Assembly (NCBI GenBank): GCA_041484545.1
Contig: JBGPHU010000002.1
Coordinates: 1 to 46,562 of the forward strand
DNA: 46,562 nucleotides
Direction: 5' to 3'
From: Candidatus Eiseniibacteriota bacterium
Lineage (GTDB): Bacteria > Eisenbacteria > RBG-16-71-46 > SZUA-252
Numbering within the stretch: position 1 is the stretch's first letter; each line of letters begins with the position of its first letter. The translations under genes were made by a program, and so were the position numbers. Below, in pieces: positions 16,817-21,001 of the stretch. Below the pieces are notes generated by a model. It was not told the origin of the DNA. It saw nothing but the letters and a program-made list of their open reading frames with translations, and did not search any database.

Positions 16817-18202
16817 GTGAGGGTGACCTTCTGGGGCGCCGCGCGGACCGTCACCGGATCCAAACATCTCCTCACCGGCCGATCGGGAGCGATGCTCCTG
16901 GATTGCGGCCTCTTTCAGGGAAGGCGCGCGGAATCGGAAGCGCGAAATCGGGCGCTGCCGTTCGCGGCGACCTCGGTGGATTGCATGGTTCTCTCGCACG
17001 CCCACATCGACCACTCAGGCGCCATCCCGTTTCTCTGCAAGCAGGGATTCGACGGCCCCATCCACGCCACGGCCACGACCGTGGATCTGTGCCGCGCCAT
17101 GCTGCTGGACGCCGCCCACATCCAGGTCAAGGACGCCGAGTTCGTGAACCGTCATCATCGCGGCGGGTCGAGGGGACCCGTAGTGCCGCTCTACACGGCC
17201 GAGGACGCGGAGCGGGCGCTGACGCAGTTCGTGCCCCACGCCTACGAAGAGCCCTTCGAGCCCCTGGAGCGTACGTCCGTCAGCTTCCATGAAGCGGGAC
17301 ACATCCCCGGCGCGGCATCCGTGGAGGTCCAGTGGAAGGAGAACGGCCGCGCGGGATCGCTGGTCTTCTCGGGAGACCTCGGGCGGCCGGACCGCCCGAT
17401 CCTGCGCGATCCGGCTCCCCTCCCGAAGGCCGATTACCTCATCACCGAGGCAACCTACGGCGGCAAGCGACATCCCGACGAGGTCTCGCTCCACGAGACG
17501 CTAGAGCGCGTGTTGCGGAGCGCCCTGGAGCGGCGGGGAAGGATCGTGATCCCGGCCTTCGCGGTGGGACGGACTCAGGAGGTCGTGCACGCGCTGGACC
17601 GTCTCTTTCTCGCGGGACGCGTTCCGGAGGTGCCGATCTACGTCGACAGCCCGCTCGCGTCCGAGATCCTGACCGTCGTGGGGCGTCACCCCGAAGTCTA
17701 CGACGACGAGACGATCGCGGCGCTCCGCCGAGGCGAAGACCCGCTGGGAATGCGACGGATCACGCTGGTGCGCGACGCGGAGGATTCCAAGAGGCTGAAC
17801 GAGAAGTCGGGGACCTTCATCACGATCGCCGCCTCCGGGATGTGCGAGGGGGGCCGCGTCCTGCATCACCTCAAGCACACCGTCTCCGATCCGAAGCACA
17901 CGATCGTCATCGTGGGCTACCAGGCCGAGGGAACGCTGGGCCGCCGTCTGGTCGAGCGCCGGGAGGAGGTGCGTATCTTCGGCGAGCCCTACCCGCTGCG
18001 GGCCTCAGTCGAGGTCCTGAACGGGTTCAGCGCGCACGCCGATCACGACGCCCTCGTCGCGCAGGCCAGGTCGTGCGGCGCGCCGAAGGGGTGCGCCATC
18101 GTCCACGCGGACCTGGAGCGCGCCGAAGCGCTCCGAGCCGCCCTCGCCCCCTCGATCCCGGTCCGGATTCCCTCGGAGGGCGACGTGTGGGAGCTCCGAT
18201 GA
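16817..18202 (+). CDS. MBL-fold beta-CASP ribonuclease (CPSF73/RNase J-related)
   Basis: N-terminus MRVTFWGAARTVTGSKHLL, HxHxDH motif SHAHIDHSGA, ITEATYGG, and beta-CASP motif C context GFSAHADHDAL. Confidence 0.85.
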   Translation: MRVTFWGAARTVTGSKHLLTGRSGAMLLDCGLFQGRRAESEARNRALPFAATSVDCMVLSHAHIDHSGAIPFLCKQGFDGPIHATATTVDLCRAMLLDAAHIQVKDAEFVNRHHRGGSRGPVVPLYTAEDAERALTQFVPHAYEEPFEPLERTSVSFHEAGHIPGAASVEVQWKENGRAGSLVFSGDLGRPDRPILRDPAPLPKADYLITEATYGGKRHPDEVSLHETLERVLRSALERRGRIVIPAFAVGRTQEVVHALDRLFLAGRVPEVPIYVDSPLASEILTVVGRHPEVYDDETIAALRRGEDPLGMRRITLVRDAEDSKRLNEKSGTFITIAASGMCEGGRVLHHLKHTVSDPKHTIVIVGYQAEGTLGRRLVERREEVRIFGEPYPLRASVEVLNGFSAHADHDALVAQARSCGAPKGCAIVHADLERAEALRAALAPSIPVRIPSEGDVWELR

Positions 18203-20214
18203 TCCGACCCGTGGGGCGCGCGCCGCGCGCGGGCTTCCGCGTCGGCGACCGCGTGCATCACAAGGAATTCGGGGAAGGGTTGATCGTGGAGGTGCGCGAG
18301 CGGGACGGGTTCGAGGTGCTGGAGATCGCCTTCCCGGACGGAATCCGGAGGCTCACCTCGCTCTATCCGCTCGAGACCGCGCACGGTCAGGCCCGCGGGC
18401 GCGCTTCCGGCTCGCCAGGCTCGCCGGTCTCCGCGGCGGAGGCCGAGCCGGCCGCGCCGCTCTCGGGCGGTCTCGCGGTGCCCGCGCGGTCCCAGTTCCG
18501 CGTGGCGGGCGGGTCGGAGGATCTCTTCCGGCGGCTCCTGTCGGGGCCGTTCGAGGATCCGCGCGATTTCGAGCTGAGGCTTCGGATCGAGCGCTTCACG
18601 CTGCATCGCGGATTCGATCGGCTTCTCTCGCTGGATCTCCTGCACGACGTGCAGAAGTACGACCATCAGAGCTCGGCCTGCATGACCGTGCTGCGACGGA
18701 TGCGCGGGCGCGCGCTCCTCGCCGACGAGGTCGGCCTGGGGAAGACCATCGAGGCCGGCATGATCCTGAAGGAATATCTCATGCGCGGACTGGTGCAACG
18801 CGCGCTCATCCTCGTGCCCGCCTCGCTGGTCGAGCAGTGGGACCAGGAGCTCAGGCGGAAGTTCGACCTCGAGTTCGCGGTGCTGAAGCACGGCACAGCC
18901 TGGTGGGAGGAGCCGCTCCTCCTCGCGTCGATGGACACGGCGAAGCTGCTCCGCCACCGCGACAAGGTGGCGGCCGCCTCCTTCGATCTCGTCGTCGTGG
19001 ACGAGGCGCACCGGCTCAAGAACCAGAAGACGCTCGCGTGGAAGTTCCTCGACCGGCTCGCGCCGCGCTACCTCATGCTCCTGACCGCGACCCCGGTGCA
19101 GAACGATCTCCACGAGCTCTACAACCTGATCCAGCTCCTGCGCCCCGGGCTCCTGGGCACGTACCGGACGTTCGGACGCGAGTTCATGCGCCGCGGCGAC
19201 AAGCGGATGCCGCAGAACACGGGGCGGCTGGCGGCGCTTCTTTCCGAGACCATGATCCGCACGACGCGCGCGAGCACGTCGATCCGGTTCCCGCGCCGCG
19301 AGGTCACGAACGTCCTGTTCGACCTCTCCGGGCCGGAGCGCGAGCTTTATGACAATGTGACCAAGTTCGTGCGCCGGGTGCTCCATGCCCACCGCGAGCC
19401 GCGCCGGGGAGCGATCAAGCTCACGCTGCTGACGCTCCAGAAGGAAATGGGATCCAGCACCTTCGCCGCGATCCCGACCCTGAGCAAGCTCCTCGCGCGC
19501 GAGGGGCCGGGGCTGGAGCGCTCGGAGATGGAGGAGCTTCTCCGGCAGGCGCGCGGGATCGAGACGAACGCGAAGATGGACGGGATCGCCCGCCTGCTCA
19601 CCGGATCGAGGGACAAGTTCGTCATCTTCACGCAGTTCCGCGCCACGCTGGAATTTCTCGCCCGCACCATCCGGAATCTCGGCATCAAGGTCGCGGTGTT
19701 CCATGGCGCGCTCTCGCTTCGCGAGAAGGAAGCCGCCATCGAGCAGTTCCGAGACCGCGCCCGTGTCCTCGTGAGCACCGAAGCCGGAGGGGAAGGGCGG
19801 AATCTGCAATTCTGCCACTACCTCGTGAACTACGACCTGCCCTGGAACCCGATGCGGATCGAGCAGCGGATCGGTCGTCTGCATCGGCTGGGACAGACCC
19901 AGGACGTGAGGGTGTACAACTTCACGGCCCGGAACACGGTGGAGGCCTACGTGCTCCAGATCGTGCACGAGAAGATCAACCTGTTCCGCACCGTGATCGG
20001 CGACCTGGACATGGTGCTCGGTCCCTATGCCGAGGCGGGCTCCTTCGAGGACGAGGTGTTCCGGATCTGGGCGGCCGCCAAGGGCGAGCGCGATCTCGAG
20101 CGCGAGTTCGGCAAGCTGGGCACGGCGCTCCACGTGGGGCGGAAGCGCTACGAGGCGGTGGAGGAGCTGGACCGGAAGCTCCTGGACGAGGTGGACCAGA
20201 ATGGCTCGCAATAG
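18199..20214 (+). CDS. SNF2-family ATPase (RapA/HepA-like) with N-terminal PcrA/UvrD-Tudor-like segment
   Basis: The ATG at 18199 overlaps the beta-CASP stop (ATGA). SNF2 motifs LADEVGLGKTIEAG, VVVDEAHRLKN, LLTATPVQN, GGEGRNLQ and WNPMRIEQRIGRLHRLGQ are present. The N-terminus reads FRVGDRVHHKEFGEGLIVEV..LEIAFPDGIRRLTSLYPLE. The listed ORF start at 17332 is an out-of-context extension over the preceding gene. Confidence 0.88.
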   Translation: MIRPVGRAPRAGFRVGDRVHHKEFGEGLIVEVRERDGFEVLEIAFPDGIRRLTSLYPLETAHGQARGRASGSPGSPVSAAEAEPAAPLSGGLAVPARSQFRVAGGSEDLFRRLLSGPFEDPRDFELRLRIERFTLHRGFDRLLSLDLLHDVQKYDHQSSACMTVLRRMRGRALLADEVGLGKTIEAGMILKEYLMRGLVQRALILVPASLVEQWDQELRRKFDLEFAVLKHGTAWWEEPLLLASMDTAKLLRHRDKVAAASFDLVVVDEAHRLKNQKTLAWKFLDRLAPRYLMLLTATPVQNDLHELYNLIQLLRPGLLGTYRTFGREFMRRGDKRMPQNTGRLAALLSETMIRTTRASTSIRFPRREVTNVLFDLSGPERELYDNVTKFVRRVLHAHREPRRGAIKLTLLTLQKEMGSSTFAAIPTLSKLLAREGPGLERSEMEELLRQARGIETNAKMDGIARLLTGSRDKFVIFTQFRATLEFLARTIRNLGIKVAVFHGALSLREKEAAIEQFRDRARVLVSTEAGGEGRNLQFCHYLVNYDLPWNPMRIEQRIGRLHRLGQTQDVRVYNFTARNTVEAYVLQIVHEKINLFRTVIGDLDMVLGPYAEAGSFEDEVFRIWAAAKGERDLEREFGKLGTALHVGRKRYEAVEELDRKLLDEVDQNGSQ

Positions 20215-21001
20215 ATCGGATCGGCGGCGCGTCGAGCTCCCGGAGATCCTGGCCTCGATCCTGGAATCTCGCGGCGCCGCCGTGTCCCGGGACGGCATGA
20301 TCTGGGAGGCGTCGCTGACCGCCGAGCTCACGTCCTCGCTCGGCGTGAGCCGGGTGCGGCTCGTCGCATCGCCCGCGGGGCGCGCGGCGCGGGGCGCGGA
20401 GATGGACGCCGCCATGACCGAGCGCATCCTCCTACTCGGGCGCTCGCACGGCGAGGTGGCGCGGCTGGTGGGCCCTGCTCCCTGGCCCAAGGGAGCCTCA
20501 CAGGAGCCCAGGATCTGGGGCCGCCTCCACTGGAGGATCCGGTACGGGAGCGACGAGATCCCGGAGGAGCTTCTGGTCCAGGAGCTGCCCGTCGGCGGCA
20601 CCGGGGGGGTGCGTGTCCCGCGGCCCGCGGTCCTGCGCGCGGCGACCCCCGAGGAGGAGGAGCGGCTTCCGCGCCCGGATCCGGAGGCGCTCGCCACGAC
20701 CTGGACCCGCGCCCTTCGGCTACTCGAGGGCCGAGCGCGCCGTAAGCTCCGTCCGCACGAGGACCGCGCGAGGCGCGAGCTCCATCGCGAGATGCGCACG
20801 CTGAGCAGCCATTATCGATCGCTCATCGCCGAAGAGCGGGCGGGGCGCGCGCGGCGCCCCGAGGATCGCGAGGCCGGCCGGATGCTTCAGCTCAAGGAAG
20901 ACTGGGAGCGGAAGCTGGTTCAGGTGATCCGGCAGCGCGCCTTCGAGACCGAGGCGACCCTCGTGGCCGCGGCGCTGCTCTACGCGGTTCCGGAGCGCTG
21001 A
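20201..21001 (+). CDS. Hypothetical protein, possibly YqhG-like partner of the SNF2 ATPase
   Basis: The ATG at 20201 overlaps the SNF2 gene 3' end by 14 nt. About 266 aa. Its size and its position next to an SNF2 gene recall the Bacillus yqhH/yqhG pair. The similarity was judged by eye only. Confidence 0.4.
   Translation: MARNRSDRRRVELPEILASILESRGAAVSRDGMIWEASLTAELTSSLGVSRVRLVASPAGRAARGAEMDAAMTERILLLGRSHGEVARLVGPAPWPKGASQEPRIWGRLHWRIRYGSDEIPEELLVQELPVGGTGGVRVPRPAVLRAATPEEEERLPRPDPEALATTWTRALRLLEGRARRKLRPHEDRARRELHREMRTLSSHYRSLIAEERAGRARRPEDREAGRMLQLKEDWERKLVQVIRQRAFETEATLVAAALLYAVPER

Follow-up and report, generated by a model that had tools for sequence, protein, structure and literature searches.

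A RapA-like ATPase and a YqhG-superfamily protein as a putative split RapA, encoded beside a beta-CASP RNase gene in Candidatus Eisenbacteria

Do three genes whose ends overlap encode the parts of one machine, or a two-piece enzyme together with a neighbour? The question is raised by a locus in DNA from a Candidatus Eiseniibacteriota bacterium (GenBank assembly GCA_041484545.1, contig JBGPHU010000002.1, positions 1 to 46,562 of the forward strand; this whole stretch of 46,562 nucleotides is referred to as the window), in which a gene for a beta-CASP metallo-beta-lactamase RNase (open reading frame 1, ORF1), a gene for a Swi2/Snf2 (SNF2) ATPase (ORF2) and a gene for a protein referred to here as P3 (ORF3) follow one another. 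An earlier note on this DNA had described the three as a translationally coupled module, and its domain calls are right for all three genes, as judged from Pfam, from matches to RapA and TTHA0252, and from the YqhG superfamily. What it did not see is that P3 appears, from profile alignments and predicted structures, to be the C-terminal part of RapA encoded as a separate protein; together with the SNF2 protein it would reconstitute one known protein. We consider it probable that these two form a RapA-like ATPase that binds RNA polymerase and recycles the stalled or post-termination enzyme, and that the beta-CASP protein is a co-transcribed general RNase.

The identity of the SNF2 protein is the simpler part of the argument. 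ORF2 carries the Pfam domains PcrA_UvrD_tudor, SNF2-rel_dom and Helicase_C, and its best match in the PDB by phmmer is RapA (E 7e-47), with residues 112–597 of the query lying on RapA residues 114–633. The top four Foldseek matches of its AlphaFold model are likewise all RapA (down to E 8.6e-27), and the label 'RapA-like' used in the earlier note is thus borne out by both sequence and fold. No substitution is seen in the Walker A (GLGKT) or the DEAH motif across the SNF2 alignment. The Tudor domain is recognised at E 3.3e-8 (PF21196; 33.7 bits against a cutoff of 23.9), and the model has a five-stranded beta barrel at residues 18–60, while residues 62–107 have a predicted local distance difference test score (pLDDT) below 50. 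Tudor domains of this kind in PcrA and UvrD bind RNA polymerase (PMC3797733). To simplify the presentation below we refer to three clades of Eisenbacteria loci as A (the clade of the window), B (L024–L029, L031 and L073) and C (L032, L033, L034, L036, L162 and L187). The Tudor domain is also present in the SNF2 proteins of clade B, and was not found in the seven SNF2 partners from other phyla that were scanned.

P3 has no match in Pfam, NCBIfam or PADLOC, and specifically none to Pfam RapA_C (PF12137). It has 172 close homologues (64–94% identity), all from Candidatus Eisenbacteria-type metagenome bins, some of which are labelled otherwise, and an exhaustive search of 1.84 billion representative sequences with a P3-family profile returns just 29 matches, such that the family is narrow at the sequence level. 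Structure carries the comparison further. When the AlphaFold model of P3 (pLDDT 79.6) is compared by Foldseek with 350,542 PDB chains, the significant matches are four E. coli RapA entries and no others (E 7e-6 to 3e-5, probability 1.0, about 270 columns). In addition, hhalign alignment of a 100-sequence profile of P3 relatives with a profile of RapA residues 601–968 (Pfam RapA_C) places P3 residues 8–247 colinearly on RapA residues 710–958 (E 8e-5, probability 61%), and ten column-shuffled controls and one reversed control gave E-values of at least 0.14. Within the matched region lies D744 of the RapA Spacer, through which E. coli RapA touches the beta-prime zinc-binding domain (PMC8501970). 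Summed, SNF2 and P3 come to 937 amino acids, against 968 for RapA. Because the SNF2 protein covers RapA to about residue 633 and beyond, and P3 continues colinearly on residues 710–958, the pair reads as a RapA split near residue 700.

The earlier note had also remarked that P3 recalls YqhG, and this stands as a remote homology within a superfamily, reached through intermediates, but not as a direct match: P3 does not match Pfam YqhG (PF11079) even at E ≤ 10, and direct hhalign comparison of window-clade P3 with Bacillales YqhG is not significant (E 0.13). As a guard against profile drift we compared sub-profiles, and find that the partners from other phyla align both with the window-clade P3 profile (98.5% probability, E 3e-15) and with the Bacillales YqhG profile (99.5% probability, E 3e-23). 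A distant P3 relative, P0265, reaches PF11079 (27.3 bits against a cutoff of 25), and the partners in Geobacillus, Priestia and Paenibacillus match it at 1e-59 to 1e-124. P3 and YqhG are therefore linked through intermediate sequences and belong to the same superfamily, the homology being remote and transitive.

Members of this superfamily vary in length. Partners outside the window clade are often 330–400 amino acids long with a cysteine-rich, zinc-ribbon-like end (CxxC...CxxC, with weak Zn_ribbon and zf matches; L028:7977-9107, L045:6818-7858, P0256 and P0258), a segment that the window P3 and Bacillales YqhG lack. Several Chloroflexota ORFs that match the superfamily hidden Markov model (HMM) are 590–860 amino acids long (L047:6724-9303, L056:6710-8521, L040:6865-8757, L039:6779-8611 and L037:1503-3284); they could carry extra domains or be over-extended ORF calls, and the one in L040 has no Pfam match. 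An apparent SNF2-P3 fusion of 1101 amino acids in L032 and L183 was discarded, as it proved to be a long ORF in an alternate frame that overlaps the SNF2 gene, and not a natural fusion.

The two genes also travel together. A scan of reference genomes with the SNF2 alignment returned 80 loci from many phyla, and the partner family was defined by repeated searches of the ORFs in every locus with an HMM seeded from P3. In 103 of 109 loci the orthologous SNF2 gene is followed immediately by an ORF of the YqhG superfamily, and three of the six remaining loci end at contig edges. The loci with the pair span Bacillota, Chloroflexota, Cyanobacteria, Desulfobacterota, Acidobacteriota, Gemmatimonadota and others. 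Spacing was measured from the end of the SNF2 ORF to the start of the matched region of the partner, and by this measure the majority of pairs share a few nucleotides, with 4 nt and 14 nt the commonest overlaps across phyla. With the pair conserved in this way, and mostly overlapping, SNF2 and P3 are best read as a two-polypeptide RapA. One study regards YqhH of B. subtilis as homologous to RapA/HepA and lists it with the translocases that interact with RNA polymerase (PMC7385302). In the literature that we searched no paper linking YqhG to RapA was found. The solid new point is that the pair corresponds to a split RapA and that YqhG-family proteins correspond to the RapA C-terminal module.

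A separate observation concerns six contigs (L003, L006, L011, L018, L019 and L020) that are 77–92% identical to the SNF2 gene of the window and have the same synteny, but carry the labels Binatia, Dormiibacterota, Limnocylindrales, Hyphomicrobiales, Acidobacteriota or Omnitrophota. These odd labels are probably binning or labelling errors on Eisenbacteria contigs.

In the mechanism that we propose, the 671-amino-acid SNF2 protein would supply the ATPase motor and a Tudor-type domain of the kind that binds RNA polymerase in PcrA and UvrD, and the 266-amino-acid P3 would supply the region that is fused in E. coli RapA, about residues 710–958, Spacer D744 included. The 14-nt overlap would co-translate the two. 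Placed close to the RNA exit channel, their complex would draw on ATP to dislodge polymerase that is stalled or past termination, or to recycle it, and the beta-CASP RNase would be co-expressed with the pair and dispensable for it. The domain identities, the similarities in fold and profile, the neighbourhood counts and the loss of the beta-CASP gene from relatives are observed, whereas we infer the physical assembly of SNF2 and P3, the binding to RNA polymerase and any cooperation with the RNase.

Several observations weigh against such a model. On the side of the motor, ORF2 scores only 241.1 bits on the NCBIfam RapA model (NF003426; cutoff 576) and covers no more than positions 113–626 of the 959 in that profile, and it scores slightly higher on the DrmD models (279 and 258 bits, against cutoffs of 950 and 610). 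Moreover, E. coli RapA holds the beta flap-tip helix with L216, V217 and L220 (PMC8501970), positions that are D, Q and R in ORF2 in the phmmer alignment, and with these contacts not conserved the polymerase interface may differ from that of E. coli RapA. On the side of P3, the Foldseek TM-scores against RapA are low (0.31–0.35), which we interpret as a different orientation of domains in the predicted model. The sequence-level link to RapA_C is weak, the hhalign probability being only about 61%, and the region of RapA to which P3 corresponds is defined by hhalign and not by Foldseek. The RapA signal emerged solely with the 100-sequence superfamily profile: the P3-family alignment against the single E. 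coli RapA sequence gives an hhalign E-value of 0.64, a profile of the window clade only gives 0.84 against RapA_C, and hmmsearch of PDB sequences with the P3 family returns chance matches only. Finally, with regard to the part assigned to the RNase, an overlap of the beta-CASP stop with the SNF2 start (NTGA or a similarly short one) is kept in both clades A and C even though the proteins of the two clades are only 44–47% identical, and this could reflect selection for co-expression.

The RNase itself is of a familiar type. ORF1 has the Pfam domains Lactamase_B, Beta-Casp (E 1.4e-35) and RMMBL (27.3 bits, cutoff 21.6), and its best PDB match is Thermus thermophilus TTHA0252 (2dkf, E 4.5e-86), with 1–443 of its 461 residues aligned to 1–413 of the 431 in the chain. 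In the alignment of Eisenbacteria homologues D29, H61, H63, D65, H66, H162, D187, E211, H407 and H430 are invariant. We take D29, the HxHxDH at 61–66, H162, D187, E211, H407 and H430 to be the metallo-beta-lactamase motifs 1–4 and the beta-CASP motifs A–C. Judged by its sequence, ORF1 belongs to the TTHA0252 type of beta-CASP RNases and is catalytically intact. It falls below the cutoff for aCPSF1/FttA (TIGR03675; 259.6 bits against 580), covering positions 175–611 of 631 and leaving uncovered the N-terminal part of the profile, where the KH domains of aCPSF1 sit, and it falls below that for RNase J (TIGR00649; 22.3 bits against 400). Alignment with TTHA0252 reveals no extra domain able to serve as a docking module. 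Orthologues at 43–53% identity are found in many phyla.

Whether the RNase belongs to the pair is a question of distribution. The block of uvrC, xerD, an outer membrane protein (OMP) gene, the beta-CASP gene where present, SNF2, P3 and, further on, a tetratricopeptide repeat (TPR) gene is syntenic throughout the Eisenbacteria loci. The beta-CASP gene adjoins the pair in clades A and C; in clade B and in L035 no such gene lies between OMP and SNF2. In L001 (JAYWED010000036.1), the closest relative of the window with an SNF2 protein 94% identical, beta-CASP codons 1 to about 426 are cleanly deleted; alignment of L001:5862-6001 to window positions 16785-18202 shows that the last 35 beta-CASP codons are kept ahead of the ATGA junction. 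This deletion could be a natural knockout or an assembly artefact. Among about 70 SNF2 loci from other phyla there is none in which a beta-CASP gene adjoins SNF2, and in the reverse search 77 of 80 beta-CASP orthologue loci lack an SNF2 neighbour and the other three carry the Eisenbacteria uvrC-xerD synteny; no recurrent neighbour gene accompanies the orthologues elsewhere. The trio is thus not a conserved system of three genes, and the earlier note's reading, which it would have given up had the three not been neighbours in related genomes, is refuted in part on its own terms. We conclude that the beta-CASP gene is a lineage-restricted, dispensable neighbour of the pair, and that the trio as a system is a lineage-specific variant for which an obligate function is not evidenced.

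A beta-CASP orthologue at 50% identity is also found in Candidatus Eisenbacteria SBS.BIN.67 (L124:4001-5392), away from uvrC, xerD and SNF2, so that within the phylum the RNase is not tied to this locus.

The first alternative to be weighed, which the earlier note put forward and which we regard as unlikely, is that all three proteins constitute one machine, in which the split RapA sits at the exit channel, the beta-CASP protein cuts or degrades nascent or R-loop RNA in the 5'-to-3' direction, and clearance of the RNA is coupled to ATP-driven release of polymerase. Such a machine would be a bacterial counterpart of archaeal FttA or of eukaryotic Xrn2 working with TTF2. RapA is located where RNA leaves the polymerase (PMC8501970). 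The machine also has conceptual precedents, as removal of polymerase by beta-CASP torpedoes is described from all three domains of life and the RapA relative TTF2 assists Xrn2 (PMC8501993), although the comparative evidence does not call for it. The same review treats the polymerase-removal function of aCPSF1/FttA and of RNase J1, and with the RNase J1 torpedo there is already a precedent for a bacterial beta-CASP enzyme that removes polymerase.

The genetics of the locus bear on this alternative in both directions. In every lineage with the gene, clades A and C included, the beta-CASP stop overlaps the SNF2 start. In the neighbour-joining SNF2 tree clades A and C are not sisters (A+C bootstrap 1%, A+B 73%), and in the beta-CASP tree built in the same way monophyly of A and C is unsupported (8% bootstrap, with alternative groupings at about 40%), such that the gene may have been recruited independently to the same spot. 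The gene is either ancestral and lost at least three times, or gained twice, and it is even conceivable that a nuclease-plus-motor machine arose on two separate occasions at one genomic position, in clades A and C. However, the gene is gone from that position in L001, L035 and clade B, no beta-CASP/SNF2 adjacency is seen outside Eisenbacteria in either direction of search, the protein is without a docking module, and 4-nt overlaps join unrelated genes here too. The unrelated uvrC, xerD, OMP and TPR genes are equally syntenic, and the adjacency of the beta-CASP gene may thus be inherited gene order. That the beta-CASP protein is a true third subunit in Eisenbacteria, receiving nascent or R-loop RNA from the split RapA motor, is in our estimation quite unlikely, and it is much more probable that the multi-phylum YqhG family is the detached RapA C-terminal module.

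A role of the module in DNA-damage tolerance or repair, in which the SNF2 motor would clear polymerase or remodel DNA at lesions or at replication-transcription conflicts and the beta-CASP protein would be a nuclease of the same pathway, appears improbable. It is suggested by the co-directional array with uvrC, a gene of the MGMT type and xerD, with its 28–32 nt gaps, its lack of promoter-like sites and an order conserved across the phylum. The helicase gene yqhH is reportedly linked to UV-stress resistance in Bacillus thuringiensis (PMC10054049), and according to a preprint E. coli RapA has a part in tolerating the replication/transcription conflicts that follow DNA damage (PMC12871841). The beta-CASP protein has, however, an RMMBL RNA-specificity domain, and its closest characterised relative is deposited as 'Ribonuclease TTHA0252'; deletion of E. 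coli rapA is reported to be without a UV-sensitivity phenotype (PMC8501970); and the linkage to uvrC was seen in the loci of this phylum, the only ones examined for it.

An anti-phage or nucleic-acid surveillance system, with a nuclease and an SNF2 helicase of the DISARM DrmD, BREX BrxH, DpdE or ZorD kind, is highly improbable and was rejected together with a type VII CRISPR Cas14 identity for ORF1, because the top NCBIfam and PADLOC scores of SNF2 (DrmD and BrxH models, 264–279 bits) and the best NCBIfam match of the beta-CASP protein (Cas14, NF045584, 372.6 bits over profile positions 1–434 of 612) are far under the curated cutoffs (610–950 for DrmD, 800 for Cas14), P3 and the beta-CASP protein have no PADLOC match and the flanking genes examined no PADLOC or defence-type match, a repeat scan of the window shows no CRISPR-like array, no methyltransferase, PLD or cas gene is among the ORFs of 14000–24000 (the only part of the window in which such genes were looked for), the locus is not a variable island but a housekeeping block that is stable and vertically inherited throughout the phylum, and the SNF2-YqhG pair is conserved in genomes of many phyla.

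We return to the split RapA with an RNase neighbour, and to the organisation of the locus in which it lies. The features are collected in Table 1.

Table 1. Coordinates (positions in the window) of the three genes and of associated features.
Feature	Position	Strand	Basis or remark
ORF1, beta-CASP metallo-beta-lactamase RNase, TTHA0252 type, 461 aa	16817..18202	+	GTG start; Pfam and PDB match
ORF2, Swi2/Snf2 ATPase, RapA-like, predicted equivalent of the N-terminal two thirds of RapA, 671 aa	18199..20214	+	ATG start
ORF3 (P3), YqhG-superfamily protein, putative detached RapA C-terminal module, 266 aa	20201..21001	+	ATG start
PcrA/UvrD-type Tudor domain of the SNF2 protein, aa 15-53	18241..18357	+	Pfam PF21196
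ATPase core: SNF2-related domain aa 162-395, Helicase_C aa 459-565	18682..19893	+	Pfam E 8e-38, 2e-24
ATGA start/stop overlap, beta-CASP gene / SNF2 gene	18199..18202	+	sequence
14-nt overlap, SNF2 gene / P3 gene	20201..20214	+	sequence; ATG 20201, TAG stop 20212-20214
Sigma-70-like promoter motif TTGACA-17-TAAACT, just past the P3 stop	21012..21040	+	promoter scan

The three ORFs, the ATGA junction and the 14-nt overlap described in the earlier note are all present in the sequence. Within DNA of 68% G+C, all three ORFs show the codon-position GC pattern of real genes (positions 1/2/3: ORF1 0.72/0.48/0.86, ORF2 0.70/0.42/0.91, ORF3 0.77/0.55/0.88), which for the third ORF, together with its 172 homologues, settles that it is a gene. 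Upstream of 20201 the ORF3 frame no longer shows the pattern, and the ATG at 20201 is thereby supported as its start. An antisense ORF of 918 amino acids (18043-20799, minus strand) that spans the SNF2 gene was set aside as a shadow ORF typical of high-GC DNA (codon-position GC 0.82/0.52/0.75).

The overlaps had also been taken to argue for stoichiometric co-expression. They are real, but an ATGA at 15161-15164 likewise joins the MGMT-type gene (PCHR motif, end 15164) to xerD (start 15161), and in related contigs uvrC/xerD and xerD/OMP overlap by 4–11 nt. As such overlaps also link functionally unrelated genes in the array, an overlap alone is no proof of a stoichiometric complex.

The locus is part of a long co-directional array (uvrC-ogt-xerD-OMP-...), and xerD, OMP and the beta-CASP gene are separated by 28–32 nt gaps without a promoter-like site, so that the unit may reach further upstream. 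The motif just past the P3 stop is the sole promoter-like site in 12000–24500, where 0.4 are expected; the TPR gene stands downstream of this strong sigma-70-like motif, and from the sequence it is likely that it marks the downstream boundary of the unit. At window positions 16788-16821, 2.4 copies of a 14-nt direct repeat, CGTGAGCGCGGACT, occupy the interval from OMP to the beta-CASP gene and enter the GTG start of the latter; they could serve in regulation or be the scar of a deletion or an insertion. Elsewhere in the window, the sole Rfam match is a cyclic di-GMP (c-di-GMP-I) riboswitch aptamer at 41536-41644 on the minus strand (55.2 bits against a gathering score of 35, E 3e-8).

If SNF2 and P3 are indeed a two-piece RapA, the uncharacterised YqhG family (PF11079 and the wider superfamily) gains a concrete, testable function, with YqhG corresponding to the Spacer and C-terminal module of an RNA-polymerase recycling ATPase, and B. 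subtilis work on YqhH that omits YqhG may cover half an enzyme. A naturally split RapA would also let the motor be separated from the regulatory, polymerase-contacting C-terminus. The more exciting possibility is that coupling to the beta-CASP gene, if it proves functional, represents a bacterial nuclease-plus-motor device for termination or recycling; being lineage-restricted and dispensable on present evidence, that coupling is a lead and not yet a finding.

How does the locus compare with known systems? For the RNase, the archaeal aCPSF1/FttA and bacterial RNase J1 have the beta-CASP catalytic fold in common with ORF1, which is a member of neither family. The nearer relative is TTHA0252 (PDB 2dkf, 3iek), a stand-alone bacterial CPSF-73-like RNase that is a near full-length homologue with the same domain order, but ORF1 differs from it in being translationally coupled to a RapA-like gene, an arrangement seen only in Eisenbacteria. 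For the pair, B. subtilis YqhH (a HepA-like SNF2 protein) and YqhG (PF11079, of unknown function) present the same two genes in the same order with a short overlap. The SNF2 cores of YqhH and of the window protein are about 40–44% identical, and YqhG-type partners and P3 are of similar length (about 260–280 amino acids) and, through intermediates, of the same superfamily. In contrast to the window, the Bacillales SNF2 protein that was scanned (556 amino acids) lacks an N-terminal Tudor domain, and none of the Bacillota loci examined has an adjacent beta-CASP gene. E. coli RapA (HepA; PDB 6bog, 8t0l) is nearest to the SNF2 protein by sequence and by fold, and each has an N-terminal domain of the Tudor type, predicted in the case of the window protein; that of RapA is two-lobed, and Pfam detects one PcrA/UvrD-type Tudor domain here. 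RapA_C is in the same polypeptide in E. coli, whereas here the equivalent region is in the next ORF and the similarity is remote. Notwithstanding these differences, P3 matches the C-terminal third of E. coli RapA in fold and in profile and the summed length of the pair is similar, such that the locus appears to encode as two polypeptides, with the break at about RapA residue 700, what E. coli encodes as one.

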